DNA from: Bacteriovoracia bacterium
Lineage (GTDB): Bacteria > Bdellovibrionota > UBA1018 > CAIPTA01
DNA: 64,000 bases
Direction: 5' to 3'
Assembly: GCA_050246755.1 (NCBI GenBank)
Contig: JBFWVL010000001.1
Coordinates: forward strand, 224,001-288,000
Under the pieces are notes generated by a model. It had not been told where the DNA came from. It made no database searches and saw nothing but the letters and a program-made list of their open reading frames with translations. Each line of letters opens with the position of its first letter. The first letter of the stretch is position 1. The translations under genes and the position numbers were made by a program. This document shows, one piece after another, positions 6,448-38,004 of this stretch.

Positions 6448-6454
6448 GAATTTT

Positions 6455-7204: not shown

Positions 7205-9238
7205 ATGCGCATACTTATTTTATCACTGCCAATCGCGATCTTCGGGCTGCAAATGGCCTGGGCCGGCTTTCGTCACCCGATCGAGCAAACCGGTGAACAA
7301 GCCGCGGCCGTGCAGAATACGGTGATTCAGCGCCCCGCCTACTCGCCATCCGTAAAATCCTCTCCCGTTGCGGCTCCCGTGGCTGCACAAAATAGTCCCG
7401 CCGACCGCCGTACCGCCGGCGTCGTATCGGCCACCACCGCTCCGAGAAATTTTGGGCCGGTGCCGAAATCTCCCGGCCTTCCCGATGCCCAGCAAATGAA
7501 GACCGGCAGCGTGAATTTGCCCAAGGGCAACGGAATCACGGTTTTTCGCGATTCCTTGCCCGCCATCGAATTCAAGGGCAGAGACCGCGCCCAGCGCATT
7601 CACAGCTACTCTCGCCAGGCCCGCATGCTCCCGCTTCCCAAAGAGGACCATGCCGCGCAAGTTCGCAGCCGCGCTATCGTGGAAAAATACCGATCTGCGC
7701 TCTCGCCGGTTCGCCACACGCCCATTCGCACCCCGCTCAATTTACACATCGATAGCCTCGCTAAGATTACTCTTCCGTCCAAACCCGCAGCGTTCCGTCA
7801 CATGGTAAAAAGAATCGACGCTCTCTTCGATGGGCTCGAAGGCAGCCACGCTCGCGGCGTGGTGGCCCTCTGGGAACTATCCCGATCCCGCCTCAATCCT
7901 CCCGAGCTCCGCGCGCGCGATTCGCTCTTTTCTGGGATCCTAAGCTTGCGGGCGCAATGGGAATCGGTAGCCGCTAACCAGTTCGAGACGAGCGCGGCCC
8001 AGGATATTCAGGAGCAGGAGCGCTACCTCAAGATTCTTTGGAGCCAACTAGACCACTTCGAGAATCCGCTGAACGTAGATAGAGTGGTAAATCACTTCGG
8101 CCTCGAAGCGATCAAAGAACTTCAGCCCGAGGGCAACAAAGCGAATTTCTCCGTGGCCAAAAAAGCCCTGCGTGAAAAAGACGGCGAATCGGCCGCCCAC
8201 TTCTCCGCGCAAATCACCAGCGGCACCCTCCATGACCGCTTCGATCTGCTGAAAGCCATTTCTTCCCTCCAGCCTCGCGAAAAGGCTAGCGCCGAAACCC
8301 GCGCCTCTCTTGAAAGGCTGGCCACCCAGGGAGACGTGAGCGTAAGAGACGAAGCACGCCTGGCCCTCGCCCGCGCCCTTCTCCGCGAAGGCTCTACGCA
8401 GGACTCGCTCGCTCAGTACAATGCTATTCAAAAAAATGGTGTAAACCGGCTCGAGGTGATGGCGGAGCAATCCTACGTGGAATTCCTTACCGGTAACCAC
8501 CCCGAAGCCCTCGGTAAAGCGATCGGCGTGGAAAGTAAATTTTTTCAGTACGGCTTCTCTCCCGACATCCATCTGGTGGAAACGCTGAGCCGGAAAGCCA
8601 ATTGCGATTTCGGCGGAGCCGAAGCGGCCTTACAGCGCTTTGCCGACCGCTACGCTCCCGAGTTCGGCGCCCTCGACGCTCTCCTGCGCGAGAAAAAAGA
8701 TCCCGCCGCCTACTACGAAGAACTGATCGCCTACCACGAGCAAAAAGCTGCGCCGATGCGCCACCAACGCTATCTCTTGCGCCTGCCGGTGGTTATGGAG
8801 AATCAGAAGCTCTTGAACCAGGCCGAAAGAGACCTGCATAAAATCGAAATGCTGGGAGTAGAACGCCGGATCCCGGGCCGCCCGGAAGGCTGGGATGCTT
8901 TCGCCCAAAGCATGCGCGCCAGCTGGCAAAAACGCATCCCGGCGATTAAGCAGGAGTCCGGCGCTGCCGCCCTCGCGGAAGCAAGCTATATGGCCACGCG
9001 CCTACGTCAAAATTTCGGTCAAGCCGAGCTAATGGGCCTCGATTTATCCACTTCGGCCGCCAAAGATTTCAATCTGCAAAATGCGCTAAACTTCCCCGTT
9101 CGTAAGCTAGCGGCCACCGAGCCCAAGAAGAACCAAGTTCTCTGGCCGTTCGAACAGGAAATTTGGGAAGACGAGCTGGACTCGCTGCGGATGAAAAATC
9201 CTTCGAAATGCGCACTGGCAAATAAGCCGACTCTCTAG
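7205..9238 (+). CDS. gltC: Exported TPR protein, GltC-like
   Basis: Signal peptide, TPR-like helices, C-terminal WPFEQEIWEDEL resembling the GltC WPF.GE.W.DELG motif; operon context. Confidence 0.65.
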   Translation: MRILILSLPIAIFGLQMAWAGFRHPIEQTGEQAAAVQNTVIQRPAYSPSVKSSPVAAPVAAQNSPADRRTAGVVSATTAPRNFGPVPKSPGLPDAQQMKTGSVNLPKGNGITVFRDSLPAIEFKGRDRAQRIHSYSRQARMLPLPKEDHAAQVRSRAIVEKYRSALSPVRHTPIRTPLNLHIDSLAKITLPSKPAAFRHMVKRIDALFDGLEGSHARGVVALWELSRSRLNPPELRARDSLFSGILSLRAQWESVAANQFETSAAQDIQEQERYLKILWSQLDHFENPLNVDRVVNHFGLEAIKELQPEGNKANFSVAKKALREKDGESAAHFSAQITSGTLHDRFDLLKAISSLQPREKASAETRASLERLATQGDVSVRDEARLALARALLREGSTQDSLAQYNAIQKNGVNRLEVMAEQSYVEFLTGNHPEALGKAIGVESKFFQYGFSPDIHLVETLSRKANCDFGGAEAALQRFADRYAPEFGALDALLREKKDPAAYYEELIAYHEQKAAPMRHQRYLLRLPVVMENQKLLNQAERDLHKIEMLGVERRIPGRPEGWDAFAQSMRASWQKRIPAIKQESGAAALAEASYMATRLRQNFGQAELMGLDLSTSAAKDFNLQNALNFPVRKLAATEPKKNQVLWPFEQEIWEDELDSLRMKNPSKCALANKPTL

Positions 9239-14038: not shown

Positions 14039-16825
14039 GTGGGGAACGATTCCAGTAAAAATCAGCTGCAGAATTTGCACGGCTTATTATGCCCGCAAAC
14101 GCTGAAAGGGGCCTTTCGCCATGCTCACGCGGCGAACCTACCCGCACGCGAAGGATTGAAAGAGCTTCTCTCTTCCGGACAAATGGCGGCTAACCCCGCC
14201 AATGGCTCCCGCTCCTCCCCCGACTTTGCTCGCTGGGACCACTGCCTCGAACTTTTGGTGGAAGAATTTCTTCTCCGCAAAGAAGAACTGAAGCGGCTCA
14301 ACAAAGCCCGCCGCCTGCAAATCGAGCAATTTCTCGCCGCCAAAGCGGGAACCGAAGTTTCGCTGGAATCCGCCGTCCAAAGCCGAATTGGCAGCAACGA
14401 ACATGAGGCCTTGCGCCTCTTCTCTTACCAAGTTTCCGTTTTCCACCTCCTGCAGATCCTTTTGCTGAAGCGCTGGACCGATACCGGGCTGATCACCGAG
14501 AAAAATTCTAACGGCCCCGAGCAAACCATTAATTGGCAGATCACTTCCTTCCTGAAGCGAAATGTGGCCAAGAAGATGCTCGGCCGGCATGACTGGTCTT
14601 TCTTAAAACAAAATATTTACAGCTGGTTTGCCCCTTCGCAGGAAACCCGTGAGCGGCTGCGGCTAATGCTTGAGCCCGTGAATCTCGCAAAATTCGACGG
14701 TGATTTTCCCGCCCATTTCCTCCAGGAAATGGGCCTGCGCACGCGGCTTTCCCTACTAGGATTCACGCCCTCCTCGATCGACTCCGCCTCGCTTTGGCGC
14801 CTTTTGCTGGAACAAAAAGTTCACGATCAGCGTCTTCCCTCCCTGGAGCAGCTGAATTTTGCTTCGCCCACGAGCGGGGCATTGCTGGTGAGCGGCCTCC
14901 GCAATGGAGAGAGCCTAAACTCCCTGCGCTCCCTGGCTAGCTCGAAAGAACTTCACGATGTTTGGGCATTTACCGATAGCGAGTTCGAGCGTTACCTTTC
15001 CGAAATATTCATTCTTTGGGATTCTGCGAGCGAAGTTCCCCGCATCAATATTCATCCCCGCTCGATCTTGCGCGAATCCACCCGTGGCGCAAAATCGGCT
15101 TCCTTATTCCAGGAAGGCGTGGTTGTTCCTTATCACGCCCAAATGGCGGCCTGCTTTCATGCGGGCGCAGGCCCCGAGCTCGACGATTGTACGGCCATGC
15201 TGGAGCAACTCCGGGAAGGTGGGCTTTTGCTGATCGTCTCCGATCAGTTCTGGCCAACCGATGCCCAAGATATTTCCGACAAAATGCGTGATACCACCCT
15301 CCGCAAGTCATGCCTGCGCTTGATTATCGATTTACGCCAGCTCTCGGCCAGTGAGGGCGAAACCCTGCCCAAGGGAATTTTCATTTTAGAAAAATGCACC
15401 AGCAAAGAAGTGCGCGACTCCAACCGCCCCCAAGTACTGCGGGCTCGCGGAACGCTGTACCCGCAGCTTGCATCCCAGTTTTGGGATATGATCCTGGATT
15501 GCGTGCGCCAGGATTCTCCTCCGGGAGAAGTAAACCTACGCACGATCGGCAGCGGCGGTGATGGAATTAAAATTGAATCCATGGCCGCCGCCGCTCAGCA
15601 GCTGCAGCTCCGCAATACGCCGTGGAATACCTTATCGGACCCTCAGTTCTACGAAGCGAGCGGCCGCCTAAGACGTAGTCCCAGTAAAGCCTTCACACTG
15701 GGTACGATCTTGCGCTGGAAGCCGGAGATGCAGTCTCCCTCGCCTCGTGCCGTATTATTGCAAGAAGAGGCCAATTGCCTGCGCGTTGCCTTGCCGGCCC
15801 AGGCTAACCAGCTCTCCCCGGAACTCCCCCAATTTCTTTTCCTTCCTGATCAAACAATGGTGGAGCATCCGAACTTTTTAACCGCTCAGCTTTATTCCGC
15901 CCCAATCCAATTTTGGTACCATCTTGAGTCAGAGCAAAATGCCGGGAAAAAAGCCAAAACGGTGGAACGCCAATCCGAGCAGCGCTTAAAGCTAATGCCA
16001 CTGATCCGGCTATTCGAGCCGGGCACCCTCCTGCCGGTATCTAGCTCCGGCAAGATTTTTGGCTCGCTCGACGAAGCTCGCTCCGCTCTGCAGGGAATTT
16101 TCCGGCAGCCCTTGCTCGGCGCGTCCGAACGCTCGCGGCTGCATGAGATAATTATTTCCCTGGAACGTTCGATCACGGCGAACTTAGAGAACTGCGCCGA
16201 GCTTTCCCGCCATTTATTCCCCGAGCTGGCCATCCTGCGCTGGAATATGCCCTCCACTCTTCCGCAGCCGGCCGCGAACTTTGTCTTCGAAATTTTCCGG
16301 CATCTCGACCACAGCCCCCTCCTGCACCATCCGGCGGTGCACATCACACGTTTGCGTAACGTGCAGGACTTCAAGGTAACCAATGTGGCCTGCGAAGAAC
16401 TGCCCATGGGAGGCTTAGCCGAGCTGCAGCTTTTTCATGGTACCGATGCGGTACTGCGCCTTAATGGCCCCTCACTTATCCTGCAGGCGACGCTCGGGCA
16501 CATTCAATCGCGCATTGGCCGTCCATGGAGAGAAATTTCCGATCAGCTCAAGTTCCCTACCGACTTCACCTTAGTGCGCAATCAGCTGCAAGAAGTAATG
16601 AAGAGCATCGATAGCCAGCTGCAGTTCACGCGTGAACATGTAGCCCTGCTCGATCAGATTTTTTGCTGCTTATTCGGATTAAGTAAATCCTTCGTGGATG
16701 AAAGTGCGCGGCAAACCATGCGCCGTCATCTATCGCCTGAGGAAACCAAGATCACGGTTCAATTTCAGAAAGAATCGCCCTTCAGACTAGCAGATTCTGA
16801 AATTCCCAGAGGCTTCCTACAATAA
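14039..16825 (+). CDS. Large protein with degenerate Eco57I/type IIG-like N6-adenine DNA methyltransferase and TaqI-like specificity architecture (probable pseudoenzyme)
   Basis: Collinear remnants: LQILLLKRWTDTGLI, LGFTP, VWAFTDSEFERYLSE, LREGGLLLIVSDQFW...LRLIIDL...GIFILEK, FLTAQLYSAPIQFWY...RLKLMPL, LDQIFCCLFGLS; no DPxCGxG or NPPY; exact start uncertain. Confidence 0.6.
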   Translation: MGNDSSKNQLQNLHGLLCPQTLKGAFRHAHAANLPAREGLKELLSSGQMAANPANGSRSSPDFARWDHCLELLVEEFLLRKEELKRLNKARRLQIEQFLAAKAGTEVSLESAVQSRIGSNEHEALRLFSYQVSVFHLLQILLLKRWTDTGLITEKNSNGPEQTINWQITSFLKRNVAKKMLGRHDWSFLKQNIYSWFAPSQETRERLRLMLEPVNLAKFDGDFPAHFLQEMGLRTRLSLLGFTPSSIDSASLWRLLLEQKVHDQRLPSLEQLNFASPTSGALLVSGLRNGESLNSLRSLASSKELHDVWAFTDSEFERYLSEIFILWDSASEVPRINIHPRSILRESTRGAKSASLFQEGVVVPYHAQMAACFHAGAGPELDDCTAMLEQLREGGLLLIVSDQFWPTDAQDISDKMRDTTLRKSCLRLIIDLRQLSASEGETLPKGIFILEKCTSKEVRDSNRPQVLRARGTLYPQLASQFWDMILDCVRQDSPPGEVNLRTIGSGGDGIKIESMAAAAQQLQLRNTPWNTLSDPQFYEASGRLRRSPSKAFTLGTILRWKPEMQSPSPRAVLLQEEANCLRVALPAQANQLSPELPQFLFLPDQTMVEHPNFLTAQLYSAPIQFWYHLESEQNAGKKAKTVERQSEQRLKLMPLIRLFEPGTLLPVSSSGKIFGSLDEARSALQGIFRQPLLGASERSRLHEIIISLERSITANLENCAELSRHLFPELAILRWNMPSTLPQPAANFVFEIFRHLDHSPLLHHPAVHITRLRNVQDFKVTNVACEELPMGGLAELQLFHGTDAVLRLNGPSLILQATLGHIQSRIGRPWREISDQLKFPTDFTLVRNQLQEVMKSIDSQLQFTREHVALLDQIFCCLFGLSKSFVDESARQTMRRHLSPEETKITVQFQKESPFRLADSEIPRGFLQ

Positions 16826-16989
16826 TAAAAATCCAAGAAACCCTGTCCATGCGCTGCAAACTCCCGCGGATCGGATGAATGCGCTCTAAATTCTTCGCCA
16901 CCTCGGGCATTTGCAGGGATAGCTGCAAAAATACTCCGCAAAAAAGAACGATTATTGGGAACCATAAGTCCATAGAACGATATCGGCAA

Positions 16990-17019
16990 TTGACCACCGG
17001 AAGTAAAGCGACATAAAAT
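16990..17019 (+). promoter_or_regulatory. Sigma70 promoter giving a probably leaderless transcript for the 17026 gene
   Basis: TTGACC-18nt-TAAAAT followed by 6 nt and ATG. Confidence 0.65.
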
Positions 17020-17025
17020 CTAGCG

Positions 17026-17739
17026 ATGATTCGCAAGATATCTCCTGAAATTGAAAGGGTATATTCTCAGCTGCGCTGGGTTCACCTGCGCACCTTTCGC
17101 ATTATCGAATCGGTTAAAGCACATTTCGGGCGCGAACAGGTAAGCAAAATAATAGAAAAGTCCGGTATTGGAAACTCGCCCCTCGCCAATGAGCCCGATT
17201 TTTTCAGCCTTCTCAACGAGAAAAGTGCTGAAGTCTTTTTATCCGAATTGGCCTGTTCGGTAGAAAAATACGAGGCCGGCATCGTAACGGCTCTGCGCCG
17301 CCACGTATCCATTTACCGTGAGCATGTGGATGAGCAAATTTTATTTGGGTCCCGCACCGCCGGCCAAGAAGCCGGCAGGCTTTTTCTCTCCCATTCCAAG
17401 CCTGCCATCCGCCAGCGCACTCATCTCGATGTTCCGGAAACGGTGCAGGCCGTTTTTGAGCTGACCTATAGCGGGCTGCCCGGCGATAAGAATTATTTCC
17501 TCAGCCTGCGCCCGATGGGCGGCTGTAGCGTGCACTTCAATCGGTCCCCTCATTTAGCGCCGTGGGCGGCGGTGGAAGCCGAACCGAAATTTCTCTACGG
17601 GATCAAGTCGGAATGGATTTGCGGGATCCTTGATATTCTTTCACCAGATACTATTTTCTCCACCACCTCTTCGCTGGAGCATGGAAACAAATACGGCCTC
17701 GCGCATTTCCACCTGCGTGGCCAGCACGCCGGCCCCTAG
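17026..17739 (+). CDS. Hypothetical protein, possible V4R/H-NOX-like ligand-binding fold
   Basis: 237-aa ORF with own promoter; C-terminal SPHLAPW...WICGIL...GNKYGLAHF resembles V4R-type layout without the usual Cys. Confidence 0.55.
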   Translation: MIRKISPEIERVYSQLRWVHLRTFRIIESVKAHFGREQVSKIIEKSGIGNSPLANEPDFFSLLNEKSAEVFLSELACSVEKYEAGIVTALRRHVSIYREHVDEQILFGSRTAGQEAGRLFLSHSKPAIRQRTHLDVPETVQAVFELTYSGLPGDKNYFLSLRPMGGCSVHFNRSPHLAPWAAVEAEPKFLYGIKSEWICGILDILSPDTIFSTTSSLEHGNKYGLAHFHLRGQHAGP

Positions 17740-19100
17740 TTTCCCTTATCCAGCTCGGGAAGCTTGCGGTAGATCGTCCGCTGGTTGATTCCCAGAAGCT
17801 CGGCCGCCCTAACTTTGTCTCCGCCCGTAAATTCAAGCGTGCGCCTAATCGCCTCAAGCTCCATCACGTGGAGCGGGGTGCCAAGCGGGAACTGTAAAAA
17901 TAAATCCGATGCCGCCGGAGCGCCGGGAACCAGCTCGGGCTGCCCTCCCAAAAGCCCTAAATTATGCGGGCCAATTTGATCACCGCCCTCGAGCATCACC
18001 ACGGTGCGCTCGATCACGTTTTTTAGCTCACGCACATTCCCCGGCCATTGGCCCCGTTGGATGGCGGTCAACGCCTCCGCCGAAAAAGAAATATCTTTCC
18101 GCCCGTATGTGTCTTTAGCCTGGTCGAGGAAATATTGTGCCAGTAAGCCGATATCCTCTCCACGTTCCCGCAGCGGAGGCAACGCGAGGGAAACCACGTT
18201 GAGGCGATAGTAAAGATCTTCGCGAAAACTGCCTTCCGCGATTTTCTTTTTTAAATCGGAGTTGGTGGCCGCCACGATTCTTACCTCAACCTTACGCACC
18301 TCGGTTCCACCGAGGCGGAAAAACACTCCGTCTTGCAGAACGCGCAGTAATTTTACCTGCAGCGTAAGGCTCATTTCCCCGATCTCATCTAGGAAAATAG
18401 TTCCCTTGTGCGCAAGCTCGAACATCCCGGGCTTCGCGATCACGGCGCCGGTAAATGCCCCTTTTTCAAATCCAAATAATTCGCTTTCCAGCAAAGACTC
18501 CGGGATCGCCCCACAATTTACGGTGATAAGCGCCCCTTCCCGCCCGCTTTCCGCGTGAATCGATTTGGCGACAATCTCTTTCCCCGTGCCGCTTTCGCCC
18601 TCGATTAAAACCGAGGCCGAGGTGCGCGCCAGCATTTTCACCGTGCGCTTGATCTGGGATATGCTGGCGGAGCTTCCAATAAAAGCCGCCTTGCCATTAG
18701 ATTCGACACCGACCTTTCTCTTGGCCAGCGTATCCTGCACGCAGCGGAGCAGGGTTTCCCGCCGGATCGGCTTGGAAAGAAAATCAACCGCGCCGAGCTT
18801 CATCACCTCTACCGCATCGGTTACGGTGCCGTAGGCCGTTAATACCACCACCGGCACGCTCAGGCCTTCTTTGCGGAGCGCGCGCAAGAGCTCCAGGCCC
18901 GAAACACCGGGCATCCGTAAATCGGTAAGCACCAAATCGAAGGACTGGCGCTTAAAGAGCGTGAGCGCCACGGCGGCCTGCTTCGCCGTCACCACTTGGT
19001 AGGCCTCCTGCTCCAGAATTCGCTGCATGGCCAGCAAATTACTTTCCTCGTCGTCTACCACTAAAATTTTCGCCCTAAACCCTTCCATGAGCCTCTCCAT
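17736..19100 (-). CDS. Sigma54-dependent response regulator (NtrC/PilR/ZraR family)
   Basis: Receiver (VVDDE, DLRMPG), AAA+ (GESGTGKE, GAFTGA, FLDEIGE, WPGNVREL), C-terminal Fis HTH. Confidence 0.95.
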   Translation of the reverse strand: MERLMEGFRAKILVVDDEESNLLAMQRILEQEAYQVVTAKQAAVALTLFKRQSFDLVLTDLRMPGVSGLELLRALRKEGLSVPVVVLTAYGTVTDAVEVMKLGAVDFLSKPIRRETLLRCVQDTLAKRKVGVESNGKAAFIGSSASISQIKRTVKMLARTSASVLIEGESGTGKEIVAKSIHAESGREGALITVNCGAIPESLLESELFGFEKGAFTGAVIAKPGMFELAHKGTIFLDEIGEMSLTLQVKLLRVLQDGVFFRLGGTEVRKVEVRIVAATNSDLKKKIAEGSFREDLYYRLNVVSLALPPLRERGEDIGLLAQYFLDQAKDTYGRKDISFSAEALTAIQRGQWPGNVRELKNVIERTVVMLEGGDQIGPHNLGLLGGQPELVPGAPAASDLFLQFPLGTPLHVMELEAIRRTLEFTGGDKVRAAELLGINQRTIYRKLPELDKGN

Positions 19101-20667
19101 TCTGTTCCGTCCAGTCGGCTACTGGCAGCCGCAAAGTGAACTTGGTCCCCTGCCGATAAGAACTATCAAAAGTAATATCTCCGCCGTGCGCCTCCAGCAC
19201 CTGGCGGGAATACGTGAGCCCCAGCCCCGTGCCTTGCGCTTTCGTGGTGTGAAACGGAGAAAAAATATTTTTTTGCTGCTCGGCCGACATTCCACCACCA
19301 TTATCGAAAATCGTCAGTTGAAGCTCGCGCTTAGCGGCATTAGCTTGCGTGATCACGCGGATATAAGAGGCTCCCGCGCGTTCCACGCCCTCGAATGCCT
19401 CGGATGCATTTTTCAGCAAATTACCCACCACTTGCACGAGTTGCCCTCGGTCTACTTCCACCGGCGGTAGCTCTCCGAGATCACAAGTGAAATAAATGCC
19501 TTTTTCCTTCAGCACCGGCTCGTAAAGATCGTGCAGCTCTTCCACAATCTCATTCAGTTGCACCGCCGAGCGCTGAAGGCGCGGTGCGCGGGCAAGATCG
19601 AGATAACTCTCGGTTACCGCAATCAGCCGATTGATCTCTTTCCGGATCGGTGCCATCGACTCTTTCGCGCGCGGGTTATCAGTAATCTGATCTTCGAGTA
19701 ATTCCGCATGAAGATTAAGCGCATTCAGCGGATTACGAATTTCGTGCGCCATTTGCGCCGCCATTCGCCCCACCACGCCCAACTTCTCTGAATGAATCAG
19801 CTTCGCCTGCGCGGTCCGCAGCTCTTCATTTTGCCTTCCCAGTTCCACGTGCGCCCGTTCTAGATTTTGCTTCTGGTCCTTAAGCAATTTCGTGTTGTCG
19901 AGTAGTGAGGAGGCCATTTTCAAGCTCTCGCGAGCCAGGGTGCCGATTTCGTCGAAATCCTGGGGAATTTCCGCCAGGTTTTTCACCGCGTTCTCGTCGA
20001 GGCCACGAGCGGAAATCCCGCGCATCACCTGGGCCAAGCTCTCCAGCGGGCGCAGCGATTTAGCTAGCCAGAGAGAAAAGAGAAAGGTCGCTAGGCCGCA
20101 GGTGGCCAGGAAAATCGCGAGCACGATGGCCAGCCGGCTTAACTGCTTTTGCACGTTGGTAGAAACCGAACGCATTTCCTGATCGAGATCCCTCACCAAG
20201 GTTTTTAGCTTCAGGCGAAAATCCGCGCGCTTAACAGAAAGCTCTTCGGCGTAGGTAGCGCGGCCTTCCCAATCGTTGTAGATCTTAGCCAATACGTCTG
20301 CGCAGGCCTGGTAGGAAACCCGCAAGCCGGAAATACCTCCGCTAAGCACCGGATCAGACGCGCCCTCGGCGGCGGCGAGCCTTCGCAAAAAATCTAGGCG
20401 CGAACTAATCACGGATTCTAGGGTATCGATCGGCCGGAAAATCCCTTCGTTGAGCGACTTATCCAAATCAGACTCGAGCAAAAAGAACGAGCTTTCCATC
20501 TGATTGAGTGCCTTGAGCGCGGGAACCTGCGAATCATTTACGGCTTCCATCCGCTTTTCGAGCTGGCGGAAGGTCCAGCTTCCGTAGCCGAAAGCGAGCA
20601 CGACCAGCACGGCGAGTAAGCCGAATCCAAGCAGGGTTTTCGCTTTTAGCCCGTAACGCAATGCCAC
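19075..20667 (-). CDS. Membrane sensor histidine kinase (2 TM, HAMP, HisKA, HATPase)
   Basis: AHEIRNPL, NLLKNA, DNGGGM, GTGLGL. Confidence 0.94.
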   Translation of the reverse strand: MALRYGLKAKTLLGFGLLAVLVVLAFGYGSWTFRQLEKRMEAVNDSQVPALKALNQMESSFFLLESDLDKSLNEGIFRPIDTLESVISSRLDFLRRLAAAEGASDPVLSGGISGLRVSYQACADVLAKIYNDWEGRATYAEELSVKRADFRLKLKTLVRDLDQEMRSVSTNVQKQLSRLAIVLAIFLATCGLATFLFSLWLAKSLRPLESLAQVMRGISARGLDENAVKNLAEIPQDFDEIGTLARESLKMASSLLDNTKLLKDQKQNLERAHVELGRQNEELRTAQAKLIHSEKLGVVGRMAAQMAHEIRNPLNALNLHAELLEDQITDNPRAKESMAPIRKEINRLIAVTESYLDLARAPRLQRSAVQLNEIVEELHDLYEPVLKEKGIYFTCDLGELPPVEVDRGQLVQVVGNLLKNASEAFEGVERAGASYIRVITQANAAKRELQLTIFDNGGGMSAEQQKNIFSPFHTTKAQGTGLGLTYSRQVLEAHGGDITFDSSYRQGTKFTLRLPVADWTEQNGEAHGRV

Positions 20668-20668
20668 C

Positions 20669-21649
20669 TCAATTCAAATAAGTCACCGGCAACGAAAGCA
20701 AATAGCCGCGTAAGTAAAGCTCTAGAATCGCCAGGTCCGCCTCGTTATTCGTTTTATCGCGATTCAAATCGAAGGCCGGAATGCAATTTTTCCCTTTGCA
20801 CTGGCTCGCGCTGGAGGCCTCGGCACAACTGCCGTTCTTCACTTCATTTGCCGGCCGGCCTACTTCCACAAGGTACGTAGTTTCGCCCACGTCGGCCCCG
20901 CCAGTTTCAAGGTAGCGCCGCGCCCAGCGAAGATCGTCCGTATTGATCACGGTGCTCAAAGCTCCAGAGCCTTCCGTGAGGCTTCCGTAGTAACGAGACG
21001 GCAGGTAGGCGCAGGAAGAAGTAGAGGCAGAGCCGCCCGGCACCGCTACCGTCACTCCGGTGAAGCTATCGCCAACGCAGGAGCTGAGCGTGCATACGTT
21101 GATCAACGTGGACCATTGACTGAACACGCTTCCATTGATCGCCACGCTCACCCGCACGTTCGCGTCTTGCGGGCAATCGTTAGACTGAGTCAAGTCGGTT
21201 CCCACCACCTGACCCACCGTAACCACGTATACTAAATTTTCTAAACTCACGGCAAGCTGTCGGCAGCCGGTACTACCAACCGGGGTGCAAAGATTAAATC
21301 TCTCGGTGGAGGATAACTGCGCGCCATGCTCCTTTGTTTGAGCAACCGCGTAGGACAAATTGCTCCCAAGTCCCGCGCTATTAGGATCGGCGGGAAGTTT
21401 TTCCAAACGCGAAAGCCGGCTATTCAAAACTTTAGGGTCGCAGCTCGACTCGTTCGCGTAAATCGTCTGCACTCTTTTAGTGGCGGCGGAAAGAACTTCG
21501 TATGCCGTTTGGCTGGCATCGAGACGGCTCACCAGCGTGGCCACGTTCTCCTGGCGCCGCGCCGCGAATAGGATGGTAAAGGCCATCAAAATTCCCATCA
21601 GCAAAACGGTCATCAAGATGCCTTGGCCCTTTTGGTTTTTTAAAGACAT
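20669..21649 (-). CDS. PilX-like minor pilin/pseudopilin with C-terminal dockerin-like Ca-binding repeats
   Basis: MSLKNQKG|QGILMTVLLMGILM class III-like signal (start ATG 21649 overlapping upstream stop); C-terminal FDLNRDKTNNEADLAILELYLRGYLLSLP. Confidence 0.65.
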   Translation of the reverse strand: MSLKNQKGQGILMTVLLMGILMAFTILFAARRQENVATLVSRLDASQTAYEVLSAATKRVQTIYANESSCDPKVLNSRLSRLEKLPADPNSAGLGSNLSYAVAQTKEHGAQLSSTERFNLCTPVGSTGCRQLAVSLENLVYVVTVGQVVGTDLTQSNDCPQDANVRVSVAINGSVFSQWSTLINVCTLSSCVGDSFTGVTVAVPGGSASTSSCAYLPSRYYGSLTEGSGALSTVINTDDLRWARRYLETGGADVGETTYLVEVGRPANEVKNGSCAEASSASQCKGKNCIPAFDLNRDKTNNEADLAILELYLRGYLLSLPVTYLN

Positions 21650-22737
21650 ACGCCACTCGCTTCTTGCTCGGAGCAACATTCCTCACCAGAGGAAGCGGCG
21701 GCCCCACTTGCCTTGCAGGCAATGCAGCTATGGGCAGAAGAGATCGCTAGGGAACAACAGTCACTCTTATTGCCCGCACTCTCGCCATTTACTATGCACT
21801 TTCTCTTTCCCTGTGCGCGCCACTGATACACTCCTCGCGTAGCGATATTCCGAAAAGAGTATTTTAGGCGCACCTCGCGTATCGTTCCGCGGAGATAATT
21901 TTTTCCGTCGGGGTGCCAGCTTTCATAGAGAAAACTCGAAGGTTTATTCTCCGTAGTGGCGCGGGTCTTTAGCTTCAGGTTGAGGGCAAAAAGCATTCCG
22001 GAAGATTGGGCCGTGGTACCCGATTGCACAAAACCACAGCTAAGCTGAGAGATTCCGAGCGCCGTGGATCCTCGGGAATCTGACTTTCCTATCCATAATC
22101 CGCCGGTTGAAGGATCTTGGTCCCCGATAACAATCTTAAGCTGCCCAGGCGTAGAGGCGTCAGCTCCCGCTTCTTTTACTGGGGCTTTGTACAGCAAACG
22201 AACCTGCAGCTTGCATCCTTTGGCGCTAACACCACTAAGCCCTGCTAAAGTCTCACAGTTTCCCGTTCCGCCGACCATGCTTCCCGATGTTTGCAGACCC
22301 AGAAGGCCAGCTGCTCCCGTAAGCGGAGCATTTCCGCCAAAAGACTCAAAATCACCTTTAAAAATCTCGAGCCCGGGATCCGCATTAGATCCCGCGTAGG
22401 TCGGCCCCAAAATCGGATCTTTCCCGATACTGGGATCTCCGGAAACCGGTTCTACCCAGGTACAACCCGACATAGCTGTACTAACGGTACCGTGACAGCC
22501 ACAGCTCTGGATCCTCACGATTTGGGGCATGATCGCATTGAGCTGAGAAATCGCGTCGGAAGAGCCTTCGATAGAATTCGCCGAACTATGAAAATAAGCC
22601 GCGAAATTAGTGGTTTGCCCAAGCAGGCTCATCAGCGCAAAAAACAAGAAACTGCCGAGCCCAGCGGCAATCAGGACTTCGATTAGCGTGTAACCGCCTT
22701 CTCGTGGCGATTTAGTCGGAATTGAGCAGTTTGGCAT
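21640..22737 (-). CDS. Prepilin-type N-terminal cleavage/methylation protein (PilW-like minor pilin) with C-terminal Cys-rich repeats
   Basis: REGG|YTLIEVLIAAGLG motif; start probably ATG 22737; tail CIVNGE...DCCS...CIACKASG...ECCS...C. Confidence 0.8.
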   Translation of the reverse strand: MPNCSIPTKSPREGGYTLIEVLIAAGLGSFLFFALMSLLGQTTNFAAYFHSSANSIEGSSDAISQLNAIMPQIVRIQSCGCHGTVSTAMSGCTWVEPVSGDPSIGKDPILGPTYAGSNADPGLEIFKGDFESFGGNAPLTGAAGLLGLQTSGSMVGGTGNCETLAGLSGVSAKGCKLQVRLLYKAPVKEAGADASTPGQLKIVIGDQDPSTGGLWIGKSDSRGSTALGISQLSCGFVQSGTTAQSSGMLFALNLKLKTRATTENKPSSFLYESWHPDGKNYLRGTIREVRLKYSFRNIATRGVYQWRAQGKRKCIVNGESAGNKSDCCSLAISSAHSCIACKASGAAASSGEECCSEQEASGVCL

Positions 22738-22825: not shown

Positions 22826-24649
22826 ATGGACCAGGCGAAGGAAAAACTCAAAATCCTGCTTATTCATCGCCCCCAAACGGAGGATGGCGATGTCTCGTGG
22901 ACTCGCTTCGCTAAAGCGTTGGCTAGTTTCACGAACCTCGAACTCGTGGAGTCGGATTCCTTTCTTCACGGCGATTTACCCGAGCATCCCCTCGCTTCGT
23001 TTCAACATATTTTTCTCGACTACTCACTCTGCGACTGGGCATTTCTCGATTCGTTTAGCGCAGCCCCACTCTCTCTGGTGACGAAAAACAACTTTAGCTT
23101 GGAATCCGAGGGGAACCGCGAGCTTATCGGCACGAAACTCAAGGGGCGCAGCTGCCTAAATATTTCGGACCTTAGCGCCACCGATATGGCGCGCATCCTC
23201 CACCTTTACTTAATTCCCAAACGGGTAGCCGGCGTGATTCCGCTTCTGGAAAAAAATGCCGTGATCCTCGGAGAGAAAATCCAGGGGCCCGAGTCCATCG
23301 GCTCCTCGCTGGATCGTTTGGCCACGTACCTGGAACAGATGGAAAGTTTCGAGCTGAAGCTGCGCATTCCCGATCTGCGCCAGGTGCTCTCCGCCGTATT
23401 GCTGGAAAGCTACCGCTTAGCGAAAGCCTCAAATACCTTCTATCCCACCATCGACTTTCAAGTCGGGATTTCGGCGAAGAAACTTGTCATTAACCTACGC
23501 TTTCAAAACAACAGCCTCTCTCTTTCCAACTTAGCCTCGGGCGCCCTCAATGGTACCGATCTTTTCTGGCAGCAGGCTTGGCTTTGCAGCGATCTCTCTC
23601 TCTTCACCGAGCACACGGCCCACCAAGAGCTTGAAGTTATGTTCATGCTATTTAAGCCGCAACGCGACTCCTCTGCCGTGTTTCACTCCCTGCTGCTGAA
23701 GACGCTGGAGAAAAGCGGTAAGCGCGAAAACTTACTTTCCAAGCCCCAGGATTTTACTTTTCAGTTTTTGTCCGACGTGCGCCTGAAAAAAGTAGACGTC
23801 GGCTCCGTGCAGATGGACGCGAACGAAATCTCCTCCGACATCGATCTCGGCACCCTTCCCGAGCCGGTGCAAGCCAAGCTTAAGGAATTGACCGAGAGCC
23901 TAGCTTTTAGCCAGGATCAGCTCGCGAGCCGGGAAAACGAGGTTCGCGAAATCATCGCCCGGCTTTCCGCCGTGGAGCTAGAAATGCAGCAAAAGCGCGG
24001 TGAGGTTCTCCGTTTAGGAAAAATCAACCAGGCTCAGTCCGGCACGGCCGCCAAACGCATTCGCGACCTAGAGCGCCGCCTCCAAAACCTACAGGCCCAG
24101 CAGCAGGCGGAGCAACGTGCGGTAAAAGAAACCAAATCCGACGCCGGCACGGCGGAAATATTGCCAAAGCTCGAGGCCAATATTCGGGTGCTCGAGGGAG
24201 AAAAACTACAGCTGCAGGAAAAGTTCACTTCCGAGCAAAGACGCTATGCGGCCCTCGAACAAAAGTACAATGCGCTCTACAAAGAGCTTTCCGCCAAAGA
24301 TAAGGACATCAACGAATTAAAGTCCGGCATGCTTAAGCTCAGGAAAGAAAACGACAAGAACGAGAATGCCGCCGCGGCCGCCAAGTCCGCCACCGCCGTG
24401 TCCTCTAACGACTCCGCGAAAGTAAAAGAGCTTGAACTGCGTGAAACCGCGCTTAAGCAAGAGCTTAAAAAAATGGTATTCAAAGTAGAGAATAATGAAA
24501 AGAATGTGAAGGCGATCCAAAACGAATCAGCCGAGAAAATGAAGCTTTTCGAGCAAAAACTTCAGGCAGCGAAAGCTAAGGAATTAGAGCTGCTGAAAAA
24601 AATCGACGATCTGGCGGCCTTGGTGAAAAAAGCCAGTAAGGCGGCGTGA
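22826..24649 (+). CDS. Hypothetical protein: pseudo-receiver-like N-terminus and long C-terminal coiled coil
   Basis: LKILLIH...HIFLDYSL receiver-like strands; last ~260 aa E/K/L/Q-rich heptads. Confidence 0.7.
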   Translation: MDQAKEKLKILLIHRPQTEDGDVSWTRFAKALASFTNLELVESDSFLHGDLPEHPLASFQHIFLDYSLCDWAFLDSFSAAPLSLVTKNNFSLESEGNRELIGTKLKGRSCLNISDLSATDMARILHLYLIPKRVAGVIPLLEKNAVILGEKIQGPESIGSSLDRLATYLEQMESFELKLRIPDLRQVLSAVLLESYRLAKASNTFYPTIDFQVGISAKKLVINLRFQNNSLSLSNLASGALNGTDLFWQQAWLCSDLSLFTEHTAHQELEVMFMLFKPQRDSSAVFHSLLLKTLEKSGKRENLLSKPQDFTFQFLSDVRLKKVDVGSVQMDANEISSDIDLGTLPEPVQAKLKELTESLAFSQDQLASRENEVREIIARLSAVELEMQQKRGEVLRLGKINQAQSGTAAKRIRDLERRLQNLQAQQQAEQRAVKETKSDAGTAEILPKLEANIRVLEGEKLQLQEKFTSEQRRYAALEQKYNALYKELSAKDKDINELKSGMLKLRKENDKNENAAAAAKSATAVSSNDSAKVKELELRETALKQELKKMVFKVENNEKNVKAIQNESAEKMKLFEQKLQAAKAKELELLKKIDDLAALVKKASKAA

Positions 24650-26493
24650 TGAGCGATAAATTCCTTAAAATCCCCATCTCCCGCTTCGAAGCTTCGAAAG
24701 TATTTTCTTGCGACGTCTTCCTACATCTCGTGCTGAACGGGCGTTACGTACGCCTGGCAAGCGCTGGCGACGAAATGTCTCCGGCCATGCTCGCCCGAAT
24801 GATCGAGAAGGGCGTGGCGTCGCTTTGCGTGCCCACTAACGGACAAGAAGGGCTCGATCCCAATACGATCTCCCTTTACGCGGCTCCGCCCGTTCCGGTA
24901 GAGACCATCGCTAGCATACCCACCGGAAGCAATGCGGTTGTGGAGCCCGTCCCCGTCGAAGCTTCTTTTGCGCCGAACCCTTCCACGCCGGAAGAAGCAA
25001 TCACCGTTGCCAGCACTCCCGAAGAAAATATTCCCGAGCAAACATTCAGCGCGGATAGCCCCGTGGAATTAACGTCCCAGTCCTTTTCCGCCTCCTCTCC
25101 GGAAAAGCCCGAGGAGATACACATTGCGGGCTCGCCGCCAGCCGAAAAATTGGAAGAGATTCACATCGCCGGAGCTCCGTCGCCGGAAGAGCCGGAACAG
25201 GTGTTCACCAACACGGCCGAGATTGAAGGCGAAGGAAACGATCTCCTTGCACGGCTAAAAAGCATCCTCCTGGGCGAAAAGCTCGCGAAAGAAACAGAGG
25301 AGTTTCACGAGAAGCTTTCCGCCTTGCCCGTGAAAGAGCGAAAAAAGCTTCGCCGTGAATTCACGGCCCTGAGCGAGGCCTCGGATCGCGTGAATTCAAA
25401 TCGGGTGGATGCCTCCCTCGAAAGAAAATATTCCGTCGTTTCCGAGATCGCGGAATTTCAAGCCCTCGGCACCCCCGCCGCCACGCCAGATCTTTTAGTC
25501 CGCGCTTCCGAGCGGATTGTGACGGCGCTAAAGGTGCTCGACATAGGCCGGGCGCAGCTAATCGTGTGCGGGCGCCTCATCACTGAATCGGAAGAATTTC
25601 GGGAGAGCGTAGCGCTCAGTCGCTTAGGAAAAATCTCGGGCGGACCGCCAAAAACCGAAAAAGAGAAAACCACGCTGGCCGAAGACGTTAAAAACTCCAT
25701 CATGGTAAACAGAATCTCAGAAGAGATCTTAAAATTCTCCGCTTCCCACGAGGAGGAAGAAGAGCAGAGATTTTCTCCGGAGCTCGCTTCGCTGGAACGC
25801 GCCCTGGAAACGGTTTCCGCTGGAGGAGCTCTTCCCGAAGAAATGGAGAATAGATTCTCGGCCGACGAAGAAGCAAAAGAGCTGATTACCGTTTTCTCCA
25901 GCTCGGGGGATGATGCCGCGAAAAAAATCGCCGAGCACGTGAAGATCACATCCGACCGCCGCGACCAAGCCATGGAAGAGCTCCACAGCCAACGGAACGA
26001 CGGCAGCTTGGTAAGGGCCAAAAGCCACCGCGATTTGCCGGCAACCGTCAGCCGCCTGGCGGCCTACCTAGGCTACTCGTTGGGGTATACCAACCTAAAT
26101 TTACTTTCCGATCTGGCTCTCACCGCGGTACTTCATTTTGCCCAAAAAGAAGAAGAGGTACGCTTTAGCAAAGAAGCAATTCCCCCTTTCGTCCAGGCAG
26201 TGATGGAAAAAAATGCTAGCACTGATTTTGTGGCGGGAGATGCCCAGGAAATCATTCAGGTGATCGACGCCTACATCAGTAATCCGGAATGCGACCGTCA
26301 GCAGAAGGATTTCGTAAAAAGGGTTTTCGACCAGACGCTAGAGATGCTCGCGGAAGAGTCAAAGCCTCTGGACGCGATTAATCTCGCAAAGTGGTCGAAA
26401 TTTGTGGAAAGGGGCGCCGATCTTACGGGGCACAGTATTTGTGTAAAGGCCTCGGCTAGCGCCATTAAGCTATCTAAGTCGGTGATAATCTAG
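24646..26493 (+). CDS. Hypothetical protein, degenerate HD-GYP-like with acidic Pro-rich linker
   Basis: N-terminal DVFLHLVLNGRYV...EKGVASL like HD-GYP accessory domains; C-terminal VSRLAAYLGYSLGY...DLALTAVLHF (HD replaced by HF); GTGA overlap with upstream gene. Confidence 0.55.
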   Translation: MMSDKFLKIPISRFEASKVFSCDVFLHLVLNGRYVRLASAGDEMSPAMLARMIEKGVASLCVPTNGQEGLDPNTISLYAAPPVPVETIASIPTGSNAVVEPVPVEASFAPNPSTPEEAITVASTPEENIPEQTFSADSPVELTSQSFSASSPEKPEEIHIAGSPPAEKLEEIHIAGAPSPEEPEQVFTNTAEIEGEGNDLLARLKSILLGEKLAKETEEFHEKLSALPVKERKKLRREFTALSEASDRVNSNRVDASLERKYSVVSEIAEFQALGTPAATPDLLVRASERIVTALKVLDIGRAQLIVCGRLITESEEFRESVALSRLGKISGGPPKTEKEKTTLAEDVKNSIMVNRISEEILKFSASHEEEEEQRFSPELASLERALETVSAGGALPEEMENRFSADEEAKELITVFSSSGDDAAKKIAEHVKITSDRRDQAMEELHSQRNDGSLVRAKSHRDLPATVSRLAAYLGYSLGYTNLNLLSDLALTAVLHFAQKEEEVRFSKEAIPPFVQAVMEKNASTDFVAGDAQEIIQVIDAYISNPECDRQQKDFVKRVFDQTLEMLAEESKPLDAINLAKWSKFVERGADLTGHSICVKASASAIKLSKSVII

Positions 26494-26817: not shown

Positions 26818-26821
26818 ATAA

Positions 26822-26937
26822 ATGGGCGTCGTGCTATCTTTGCACAGGGCTTCCCCTGCACTAGTTTTGCCGCAGACCTGCTTAACTGCCGTGTTCGGAA
26901 TGGGAACGGGTGGGACCAGGTCGCTATAAACACCCAA
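26822..26937 (-). rRNA. rrf: 5S rRNA
   Basis: Conserved CCCATTCCGAACACGG core, ~116 nt, downstream of 23S. Confidence 0.93.
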
Positions 26938-27115
26938 AGTGTTAGTAGCTAATTCTGTTCTTGATATCAAGGTGAAATCTGTAGAAGTGCGCTCTAGAAG
27001 AAGCGAATCAACAGTTGAAGATTAAACGTTTTATAGTTTCAGAAGATCAATATAGGTACAAATTCAATTTCTTGGATTTGTGTATTTCTTAGAGTCTTGC
27101 GACCTAAGAAAAAAA

Positions 27116-30118
<3,003 letters not shown>

Positions 30119-30240
30119 GATCTTTGGAACTATTTAACGAGTTCTCGCAAATACATGCGAGAACATACAACAATGAAATTGTGTTTATAATCTTCTACTA
30201 TTGACGTGCTCCCGCTTGAGCGCACATCAACAGACTTCAC

Positions 30241-30255
30241 CTTGTCAAAGAACAG
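30241..30255 (-). promoter_or_regulatory. rRNA antitermination boxA (spacer copy)
   Basis: Minus strand TGTTCTTTGACAA. Confidence 0.75.
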
Positions 30256-30299
30256 AGAGAGAATTGCTTCTCACTACAACATGCGAAAGAGAGTCAAAT

Positions 30300-30376
30300 T
30301 GGTGGGCCCGAGTAGACTCGAACTACTGACCTCACCCTTATCAGGGGTGTGCTCTAACCAACTGAGCTACGAGCCC
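30300..30376 (-). tRNA. trnI: tRNA-Ile(GAT) in 16S-23S spacer, CCA encoded
   Basis: GGGCTCGTAGCTCAGTTGGTTAGAGCACACCCCTGATAAGGGTGAGGTCAGTAGTTCGAGTCTACTCGGGCCCACCA. Confidence 0.97.
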
Positions 30377-30434
30377 CTGCTCTGCTCTTTCACAGCTAGG
30401 TAGGAAATTTCACGGTGCAAACATTAAAACTGTT

Positions 30435-31988
<1,554 letters not shown>

Positions 31989-32547: not shown

Positions 32548-33357
32548 TTAGTTGCGAGAAATCTTACGCACCAAAAGCGTCGTGCCGTCGGCGGCGTCTA
32601 GCAGAATCTCCACGTCGCCTAGAGGCGACCTAGGTATAGAGATAGTAAATTTATAAACAAGGGCTATGGCGCTGCCCGTTAGACGATAACCGAGTAAAGC
32701 ATGAATCAAAATATCGCTCGCGCTCACCGCCTCCCCCTCGTCTCCCTGAGAACGCCGGAAAATGGCGAGCGCCGCCTGAGCAGCCTGGGCCGCGAGCTCG
32801 GGAGTAACCACCGGGCCGCGAGCGGGCGTGGGGCCAGAATAAGAATTATTTGATAAATAAATTAAGTTTCCAGCGGAATCGAAGATGGTATTGATGCGGG
32901 AATCAAATACAGGAAGGCCGTTGATCGTTTGCGCCGAAATCACTTGCTGGCTCTGATCCATGCTTCGCCGGCTTTGCACGCGAAGCTCGCCCGCCGCAAT
33001 CCCGAGGAGGCCAGCATAGTCGCGCAGGAATTTTTTTGCCGCTTCGCCAGAATCAGTTTCTCCGAGCGATAAGCGCGCGCCCGACATCTCAGTTAGTACG
33101 CCTTCGACCCACGCCATACGCCAAGGCCCACTCGAATGACGCCGCAGGTTCTCCAGCAGCTCAGGCCGCGATTGCCCGACGGTGGCCGCCGGGGGAACAC
33201 TAGAAACAAGCGGGCGAAGAGCCGCCGCCGGCGAAGCCGGGCTTGCCGGCACCCGCGGAGAAGGCGAAGCGGGCGCTTCCGGCTGAGAATTATTCCGCAG
33301 GAAAAATAGCCCAAAACTAAAAAGGAAGGCCGTGGTGGCAAATAGTAAGTAACGCAT
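32548..33357 (-). CDS. Membrane-anchored stand-alone FTP/PepSY-like (metalloprotease propeptide) protein
   Basis: N-terminal hydrophobic anchor, Pro-rich linker, AAKKFLRDYAGLLGI, QTINGLPVFDSRI, LVYKF...ILLDAADG; no HExxH. Confidence 0.7.
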   Translation of the reverse strand: MRYLLFATTAFLFSFGLFFLRNNSQPEAPASPSPRVPASPASPAAALRPLVSSVPPAATVGQSRPELLENLRRHSSGPWRMAWVEGVLTEMSGARLSLGETDSGEAAKKFLRDYAGLLGIAAGELRVQSRRSMDQSQQVISAQTINGLPVFDSRINTIFDSAGNLIYLSNNSYSGPTPARGPVVTPELAAQAAQAALAIFRRSQGDEGEAVSASDILIHALLGYRLTGSAIALVYKFTISIPRSPLGDVEILLDAADGTTLLVRKISRN

Positions 33358-33366
33358 TTTTCCTTC

Positions 33367-34935
33367 CTAATTGGGCCAAAGGGCGGAGTTACTGCAACTC
33401 GAGCTCGTGGCGGCGGATCCCACCGTCAGAGAAAAACTCACGGCCACATCAGCGTTCGCGGCCAGCGCCCCGGTGGGATCCGAGTACATCGGCCTAAACG
33501 AGAGAGAGAAATTCTTTGCCCCCGCGCTGGTTGCCCTGATGAGGAATGCGGCCATGATGGTGGCGTCGCCGGTGGATCCGCCCGACATTGAAGTCACGAA
33601 GTCGCTATTGGCGTCGAGACGGTAGAACTCTCCCACCTGCCCGCCACTAGGTATACTCGTGCCGGCCGGCGCCGCACCTAAGGTGGCCACGCCCATGCCC
33701 ATCGCGGTACCACTGGGATTTTCCAGATTCACCAGCACCAGGGCGGTTTCGCCCACGTCGAGCTGGCCATTGCAGTTTCCGCCCGACTGGGCGCTGATGG
33801 AATGGTCGTCTATTATATAGACTTGCTTCACGGCGCCGCCCGCCGTGGAAAGACGAAGGCCGGTGGCGTCGTCGGCGCGGTGAAATCCTTTGGCCGTGAA
33901 TTTTGCGACTATTAGATTTCTCTCGGCGACCGAGAGATTTACGAAGGCCGGGCCAGAGGCGTCGTAGAAGGCCTGGTAGAAATCTTTGAACCGGGTGGTG
34001 CCGGGCAGAAGCTCAAGTGCGGTTTTCACCAGGCGATCCATCTTCGCTTTCCCTAAGTTCGCCGGATCGCGCAGATCCCAAAGAATCTCGGTGATGGGCC
34101 GGGCGTCGTCATGTACCTCGTACACCATGCTGGCGGGATAGGCATGATTTTGGGTGGCGTCGCGCACATAGCCCGCGCCGAGCGCCCCGAGAAACCATTC
34201 GGCAAGCTGCCCATCATTTAAAATGGAAAGAGCCCAGTAGTCGGCCAAGGCTTCGTCCAGGGCGCCCGCCTCCCCGCTCGAGTTCATGATCGCCGTGCTG
34301 GCAAGGGTGTGGTTGATCGAGTGGCCCGATTCGTGGATCACTACGTCGGCATCATCGGCGGCCCAGACTTTTTTCCCTCCGCCTTGGTCGATGTAACCGA
34401 GACAGACTGCTTTTGCGCTAGGAGAGTAGAAGGCATTATTCGAATAATTGCAGTGGGCGTCAATTTGCACCTTCCCGAGCGCGCCAAGATCGGCGTTAAG
34501 GGAGCTCATTAAATCACGAAGCTTGGTTGCATAATAAAAACTATTTAGCTGTTGGAATTCGGGGCTGCCCGGTCCGTAGGCTTGATTGGCCCTGTCCATC
34601 GAAGCCAGGCTATAAGGAAAGAGCGAGTCTCCCACCACAGAGAAACGATCACTCTCAAGAAAGCAGTTCCCGGCGAGGCCAGAAAGGGTGCCGCTGGTGG
34701 TATAGGCCGTCGAAAGCACGGAATTGAAGGCTAGGACACTGTTGCCGGAGCCGGTACGGGGATTCTCGCTAAAGTAATTGATAAGCACAGAGGTAGGTCC
34801 ATTTACGCAAGAACCCACTAGGGGCGGGGTGCCGCTCGTCTCTACCGTAGTCTTATTACTAGGGCCGCAGGCGGCTAGAACTAGCCACAGACCGTAGATA
34901 AGGAAGCTCTTTTTCCATGAGTCCTGCAAAATCAA
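33367..34935 (-). CDS. Lipoprotein zinc metallopeptidase (M36/M4-like catalytic domain) with C-terminal Ig-like domain
   Basis: Lipobox LAAC, NAFYSP, DADVVIHESGH, GALDEALADY, EVHDD...ILWD; C-terminal GNCNGQLDVGETALVLVNLEN. Confidence 0.85.
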   Translation of the reverse strand: MILQDSWKKSFLIYGLWLVLAACGPSNKTTVETSGTPPLVGSCVNGPTSVLINYFSENPRTGSGNSVLAFNSVLSTAYTTSGTLSGLAGNCFLESDRFSVVGDSLFPYSLASMDRANQAYGPGSPEFQQLNSFYYATKLRDLMSSLNADLGALGKVQIDAHCNYSNNAFYSPSAKAVCLGYIDQGGGKKVWAADDADVVIHESGHSINHTLASTAIMNSSGEAGALDEALADYWALSILNDGQLAEWFLGALGAGYVRDATQNHAYPASMVYEVHDDARPITEILWDLRDPANLGKAKMDRLVKTALELLPGTTRFKDFYQAFYDASGPAFVNLSVAERNLIVAKFTAKGFHRADDATGLRLSTAGGAVKQVYIIDDHSISAQSGGNCNGQLDVGETALVLVNLENPSGTAMGMGVATLGAAPAGTSIPSGGQVGEFYRLDANSDFVTSMSGGSTGDATIMAAFLIRATSAGAKNFSLSFRPMYSDPTGALAANADVAVSFSLTVGSAATSSSCSNSALWPN

Positions 34936-36151: not shown

Positions 36152-36169
36152 GGAAAGAGGAGAAGCAAA

Positions 36170-36856: not shown

Positions 36857-36882
36857 AAAAAACGGAAAGAGCAGGAACTTTT

Positions 36883-37515: not shown

Positions 37516-37517
37516 AT

Positions 37518-37997: not shown

Positions 37998-38004
37998 GGC
38001 TGAG

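Follow-up and report, generated by a model that had tools for sequence, protein, structure and literature searches.

It is still an open question which role dockerins play where cellulosomes are lacking, and non-cellulosomal dockerins were reportedly described by Peer et al. in 2009. The question is raised again by a minor pilin gene with a dockerin-fold C-terminal domain, which lies at 20669..21649 on the minus strand of the window, ie the whole 64-kb stretch of DNA analysed here. All features of this gene and its operon described below are on the minus strand. The gene encodes 326 aa (P0001) in one open frame. The protein begins MSLKNQKG|QGILM and continues with a hydrophobic stretch; there is a class III-type leader (residues 1-8, cleavage at G8|Q9) and a hydrophobic N-terminal helix (residues 9-30), encoded together at 21560..21649, with Met and not Glu at +5. 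This agrees with the earlier note, which had described a PilX/GspK-like N-terminus without Glu5, and the arrangement is conserved in the family: the G|Q site is present in 39/40 close and 54/60 distant relatives (those where a site was found), and Glu is not among their common residues at +5. An alternative ATG is also present further upstream; the start given here is at the same site as in the relatives, and overlaps the stop of the upstream pilin gene by 10 nt.

Single-sequence searches of Pfam, NCBIfam and the PDB with P0001 gave nothing significant, and the domain search gave no match to the N-methylation motif. Matches to PrgH and lanmodulin were confined to the N-terminal helix and were put down to chance, and a weak match to ComGG in NCBIfam (E 0.0038) was under the cut-off. 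G|Q starts occur in Tad pseudopilins, and TadG/CpaL of the Tad pili were considered; no Tad family match was obtained for P0001 or in the window, and the Glu5 motif of its partner pilin is of the type IVa/T2SS type. P0001 was assigned to the K class because it has no Glu5 and its gene is located after a Glu5-bearing PilW/GspJ-like gene; Glu5 is invariably missing from K subunits (PMC12918778, partial text). P0001 would appear to be processed as a prepilin and to take up a position at the filament tip.

In the AF2 model, and from its structural matches, residues 31-187 (21089..21559) form a pilin globular domain consisting of a long helix and a four-strand sheet. The full-length model has a pLDDT of 78 and a pTM of 0.57. 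The best three structural matches of the pilin fold (residues 39-187) are EpsI (Z 6.0), GspK (3ci0_K, Z 5.8, rmsd 2.5 over 89 aligned residues) and XcpV (Z 5.2); all the structural Z-scores in this study are below 8, which the tool rates as middling. Foldseek with the full-length model gave no relevant match. The four strands of the modelled sheet run unbroken over residues 131-182 and the extra domain comes after them; an alpha-domain inserted in the beta-sheet, as in GspK, is absent from the model. L182, N184 and C186, at the end of the pilin domain, are 97-100% conserved.

The earlier note had pointed to two related C-terminal segments, the second near canonical and the first with a degenerate loop, separated by a Cys-containing insertion. 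Both segments were found, at residues 220-247 and 292-322, and the description holds in each respect. Repeat 2 (residues 294-321, with a tail at 322-326; 20672..20770) has an intact Ca-loop pattern in D294-G315, where loop positions 1, 3, 5, 9 and 12 are D294, N296, D298, N302 and D305, ie all five Ca-ligand positions are kept. The loop scores 5/5 in 46/47 close and 63/65 distant relatives, with positions 1 and 12 used as anchors, and E303, E310, R314, G315 and Y316 are the conserved residues of the repeat. The loop pattern of repeat 2 suggests that P0001 binds Ca. The loop of repeat 1 (residues 219-250; 20900..20995) keeps positions 9 and 12 only (N236 and D239); none of 47 close relatives has more than 3/5 positions there, and 6 of the 55 distant relatives with a scored repeat 1 have 5/5. 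The helix of this repeat (D239-G250, including R241, W242, R244 and R245) is the most conserved stretch of P0001, with a mean of 0.93 and 9/12 positions at 90% or more in 37 close relatives, and nowhere does the protein vary less than in its dockerin helices. Like cellulosomal dockerins, repeat 1 has Arg-Arg at positions 17/18; the conservation of R241/W242 does not extend to distant relatives. The inter-repeat insertion (43 residues; 20771..20899) has three invariant Cys (C275, C284 and C289), and its median length is 41 aa in close and 20 aa in distant relatives.

The Pfam scan for Dockerin_1 (PF00404) proposed in the same note gave a divided result: P0001 itself had no match at the gathering score of 22.9 bits, and the domain was detected in its relatives. 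Weak matches were obtained in 18/37 close relatives (best E 0.0011), while 63/79 further relatives had a match at E ≤ 0.05 and 33/79 reached the curated cut-off, all of these 33 being within the 69 distant relatives. The best single-sequence match of P0001 to a PDB dockerin had an E of 0.13. A profile of 37 close relatives matched the PDB dockerin 2vn5_B at E 4.8e-4, and 8/12 of its PDB matches were dockerin-bearing chains, aligned at the repeat-2 region. When a profile was made from distant relatives only (the C-terminal regions of 65/69), residues 205-321 of P0001 scored 51.4 bits, compared with a maximum of 6.5 in 1000 shuffles.

A C-terminal dockerin-like domain, as first proposed from the letters of the DNA, is also what structural modelling returns. 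The model of residues 190-326 has a pLDDT of 92.5, and in a search of 48,161 chains all 14 with Z ≥ 2 are dockerins. The best fold match is 4dh2_D (Z 7.7, rmsd 2.2, 69 residues aligned). The dockerin chains align from residue 219 of P0001 and the matches cover both repeats; an isolated EF-hand was rejected on this ground. All ten Atlas structure rows carry Dockerin_1 (TM 0.50-0.56). Foldseek with this model gave no match at E ≤ 0.001, and 19 of the 21 matches listed are dockerin entries. Because the matches are exclusive to dockerins and extend over both repeats, the fold is established despite Z-scores below 8; this copy lies outside strict Pfam membership.

About 119 relatives of P0001 were collected, including 79 new ones among the 87 matches from a search of 1.84 billion representatives. 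Where taxon labels were given (four proteins) they were Bdellovibrionota, and the titles of four related MAGs read Bdellovibrionota, Oligoflexia and, in two cases, Bdellovibrionales. The profile search for the taxonomy of the distant relatives gave 9 matches, one of them named (Bdellovibrionota, included above), and one distant relative is named 'dockerin type I domain-containing protein' by NCBI. A profile of the pilin part only detects 59/79 new relatives at E ≤ 0.001, and 55 of these 59 carry repeat 2, the remaining four being short sequences which stop before it; the fusion is therefore no artefact of a dockerin-based search. The pilin-dockerin fusion is family-wide. In a tree of the pilin part (104/105 rows, quick method, unrooted) the close group lies on one side of a branch with an SH-aLRT of 99.

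The gene directly upstream (21640..22737) encodes P0120, a J-class (PilW/GspJ-like) minor pilin of 365 aa that has Glu5 and ends in a Cys-rich cap. Its relatives have Glu5 in 17/20 cases, and one of them is named 'PilW family protein'. A conserved segment of this pilin, residues 296-314 (21796..21852), contains the conserved residues N297, R301, G302, Y304, W306, R307, R312 and C314, of which N297, R301, G302, W306 and C314 are 95% conserved. The cap itself (about 50 residues; 21643-21798) has two Cys-Cys-Ser repeats and conserved Cys, and, at low TM, it is overlapped by Atlas rows with Myxococcota proteins of the Dickkopf_N/EB type. P0120 is a second modular pilin. One of its homologues, P0134, lies on a contig of 3.08 Mb that may be a nearly complete genome.

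Downstream of P0001, a membrane sensor histidine kinase (19075..20667) begins 1 nt past the pilin stop and is followed by an NtrC/AtoC-type sigma-54 response regulator (17736..19100). The operon order is PilW/GspJ-like pilin, PilX/GspK-like pilin, kinase, sigma-54 regulator. A genome scan with close-clade patterns found four related loci. The kinase and regulator follow the pilin gene in all four, and a J-like pilin is directly upstream in 3/3 of those reaching that far; in addition, for 9/19 J homologues the longest contig listed is equal in length to that of a K homologue, which is indirect evidence. Identification of the two regulatory genes as PilS/PilR was unsupported, the best NCBIfam matches being AtoS/AtoC, far under the cut-off. 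When the window and the related loci L001-L004 were scanned by pattern for an I-class (PilV/GspI) pilin, no third prepilin motif came up, and the I pilin gene may be located elsewhere in the genome. No PilY1 was seen within the 64-kb window. That the upstream pilin contains a cohesin was rejected, as its Atlas matches (TM 0.41-0.43) are to pilins and the lone Cohesin row has a TM of 0.20.

The upstream pilin had also been named in the earlier note as a partner for AlphaFold-multimer. The complex model of the soluble parts of the J and K pilins scored 0.81 (runs 0.69, 0.81 and 0.87), and the best of three controls scored 0.00. This score mark is reached by 116/157 solved pairs and by 2/215 mismatched pairs, figures which are approximate with custom-made alignments such as those used here (20 and 37 rows). 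The runs had at least 51% of contacts in common, and the partner pLDDT was at least 77. The contact list was taken from the best run only. In that run the interface is predicted to consist of the two long helices and 23 residues of repeat 2 and its tail, with none in residues 219-293, and it takes in positions 10, 11, 17, 18 and 22 of repeat 2, which are the recognition positions of dockerins (PMC6487960, partial text). The best-defined contacts are those of J 302-314 with the last strand of the K pilin domain (residues 173-183; 21101..21133); their index sum is constant at 485-487, which indicates an antiparallel strand pair. The conserved J segment is thus predicted to be both a donated strand and a dockerin-contact site, Y304 also contacting L311 and Y316 of the dockerin in the model. 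The charges fit at the level of the interface, with conserved E303/E310 on the dockerin, not assigned to individual J arginines, and conserved R287, R301, R307 and R312 on the J side.

Position 10 of repeat 2 is Glu in 83% of 47 close and 83% of 65 distant relatives, and position 17 in 100% and 85%, respectively. The solved dockerins aligned to the 37-relative profile have Ser/Ile at position 10 and Lys/Arg/Ser at position 17. The interface is only slightly more conserved than the rest of the two proteins (0.62 versus 0.55 for K, 0.59 versus 0.53 for J). The J-K interface is a prediction from one model, whose score may stem from likeness to solved J-K pilin pairs; the model indicates that likeness and supports binding. 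The XcpVWX crystal of P. aeruginosa has no solid J-K contacts (PMC6211770, partial text) and the pair was modelled without an I subunit, so that an I subunit could change the J-K picture.

The gene, its leader, the two folds, the family-wide fusion and the operon order are computational observations, and a mechanism can be proposed that takes in the predicted interface. In a lineage of Bdellovibrionota, P0001 would belong to the tip complex of a type IV filament, either a type IVa pilus or the pseudopilus of a type II secretion system, and would be its K-class minor pilin, which is the most apical one and has no Glu5. The prepilin would be cut at G8|Q9 and would then pair with the co-translated upstream J-class pilin, whose C-terminal segment 302-314 would run antiparallel along the last strand of K. 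The Ca-binding repeat 2 (helix 303-319 plus the tail) would fold over this segment and the head of J, and the cohesin-binding surface of cellulosomal dockerins would have been reused to hold a pilin. We think it probable, with some reserve, that the dockerin acts within the J-K tip complex as a latch stabilised by Ca; its role would be mechanical or one of priming. A larger scheme can be put forward more tentatively, as a possibility that we would not yet favour: J, and not PilY1 or K, would donate the strand completing the K sheet, a Ca-dependent dockerin on K would lock that strand, a natural dockerin would have a pilin and not a cohesin as its partner, and the repeat-1 face may recruit tip cargo, which together would give predatory Bdellovibrionota an additional mode of tip construction for type IV filaments.

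The latch leaves the conservation of the repeat-1 helix unexplained, since the J-K model has no named contact there. Repeat 1 could bind a further protein through its Arg/Trp face while repeat 2 latches J; candidates are an I or H pilin, an adhesin or enzyme that is secreted, and a cohesin-like domain. That helix is the most conserved region, with 9/12 positions at 90% or more, and has the Arg-Arg pair of cellulosomal dockerins at positions 17/18. However, the repeat-1 residues may instead pack on the Cys-rich insertion or on helix 3 within the domain, R241/W242 vary in distant relatives, and absence from the contact list makes a residue uncertain, not free; we consider a second binding face of this kind unlikely. 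Another reading is that of the earlier note, in which the dockerin is free at the tip and serves, in the manner of a cellulosome, as a modular socket for adhesins or enzymes that bear a cohesin. The fold is a true dockerin fold and the Pfam cut-off is passed by 33/79 relatives; moreover, asymmetric dockerins without one Ca loop still bind cohesin (PMC12484212, partial text), and putative cohesin/dockerin adhesins exist in non-cellulolytic bacteria (PMC10553843, partial text). Other results weaken the proposal. The J pilin sits on the recognition face in the model, the repeat-2 Glu at positions 10 (83%) and 17 (100%) of the close relatives are unlike the solved type I dockerins, and 0/93 ORFs in the 64-kb window had a Pfam Cohesin match at E ≤ 0.001. 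A pure cohesin socket now seems to us very improbable.

The dockerin might also be a direct adhesin or a calcium sensor, standing in functionally for the GspK alpha-domain that binds Ca or for the PilY1 Ca loop, and might contact prey or surfaces or signal to the co-encoded kinase. Ca is bound by the extra domain of GspK/XcpX (PMC6211770, partial text), modular pilins are often adhesins (PMC8179133, partial text), and the dockerin repeats of predatory Omnitrophota have been suggested to serve as modules for attachment (10.1101/2023.11.21.568195, partial text). The kinase and regulator follow in 4/4 loci, but the tie between kinase and pilin is one of gene order, and the least-variable dockerin helices would suit a constant partner of the cell's own better than ligands that differ between prey. 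An adhesin or sensor of this kind is very improbable.

Compared to other K-class minor pilins (PilX/PilK, GspK/XcpX, ComGG), P0001 has the same Glu5-less class III leader, the same pilin fold, a gene directly after that of a J-class pilin and, as in GspK, an extra module which would bind Ca. It differs in that the module is a C-terminal dockerin and not a sheet-inserted alpha-domain, and in that no I-class pilin or PilY1 gene adjoins it. Tip assembly has been proposed to require that PilC/PilY1, MshQ or K itself contributes a strand to the K sheet (Ellison et al., PMC12918778, partial text), whereas in our model the sheet-edge strand comes from the J pilin. The J-supplied strand may lie at the same K-edge position, in which case the family could be an exception to what was recently proposed as a rule for which component supplies the tip-licensing strand. 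With type I cellulosomal dockerins (PF00404; 4dh2_D, 4fl4_A, 5nrk_B and 2vn5_B) the module shares the fold over 56-69 residues (rmsd 1.8-2.3), the repeat-2 Ca-loop pattern and R-R at positions 17/18 of repeat 1. Unlike them, it has a degenerate repeat-1 loop, a 43-aa Cys-rich linker and acidic positions 10/17 in repeat 2, it is fused to a pilin, and it is predicted to bind a pilin in place of a cohesin.

Modular pilins are already known, and pilin-dockerin fusions have already been tabulated without comment. The table in question, Dataset S1, gives accessions only, and we take IPR002105 there to be the dockerin type I repeat. Dataset S1 of PMC8179133 has IPR012902-IPR002105-IPR002105 in two proteins and IPR012902-IPR002105 in one; its rows require an N-methylation motif, to which P0001 has no match. 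Matching neither that motif nor Dockerin_1, the gene would be missed by Pfam/InterPro surveys. The partial main text of PMC8179133 does not mention dockerin or describe a family, lineage, operon or partner for these fusions; the paper is a survey of modular pilins. In those of S. sanguinis (PilB/PilC), as in P0001, a functional domain is grafted C-terminal to a pilin module. The dockerin-type giant proteins of Omnitrophota likewise place dockerins outside cellulosomes in a likely predatory lineage, but they are not pilin-fused and no defined non-cohesin partner is described for them (10.1101/2023.11.21.568195, partial text). No pilin-dockerin fusion appears in the partial texts of PMC3672088, PMC10553843 and 10.1101/2023.11.21.568195, and a search over titles and the starts of abstracts, covering few subscription papers, found no paper on contacts between dockerins and pilins or on a pilin-dockerin family of the K class. 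With the partner and the residues concerned already named, the family offers a small, soluble two-protein test of non-cellulosomal dockerin function. It also offers a conserved tip module from a lineage with cultured relatives that prey with the help of type IV pili (PMC3818213, partial text).

Several other features of the window were noted. A pair of proteins of 928 and 237 aa without a Pfam family is encoded at 14039-17739 (plus strand) and has the same position in 3/4 related loci; those three have an extra gene of about 500 aa between the pair and the regulator, which is absent from the window. Two divergent unannotated proteins of 607 aa (long coiled coil) and 615 aa (acidic), at 22826-26493 (plus), are also found upstream of the pilin pair in L004. 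A complete rRNA operon (16S, one tRNA, 23S, 5S) lies at 26821-31988 (minus). At 4807-9238 (plus) an FHA-domain GltG-like protein with an AgmX/PglI C-terminal domain precedes a beta-barrel protein of the outer membrane and a 677-aa protein without annotation. Protease-like secreted genes occur at 657-2249 (plus), 32548-34935 (minus) and 51174-52079 (minus); the set comprises an M4 thermolysin-type peptidase, a pair which by eye resembles a split propeptide and metallopeptidase, and a trypsin-like peptidase. Finally, a cluster at 35060-41157 (plus) encodes a MIDAS-adhesin/CglD-like lipoprotein (NF052240, E 5e-18, under the cut-off), a MotA/TolQ-like protein, two ExbD-like proteins and a 1050-aa TPR protein, and resembles a gliding-motility or Ton-type system.
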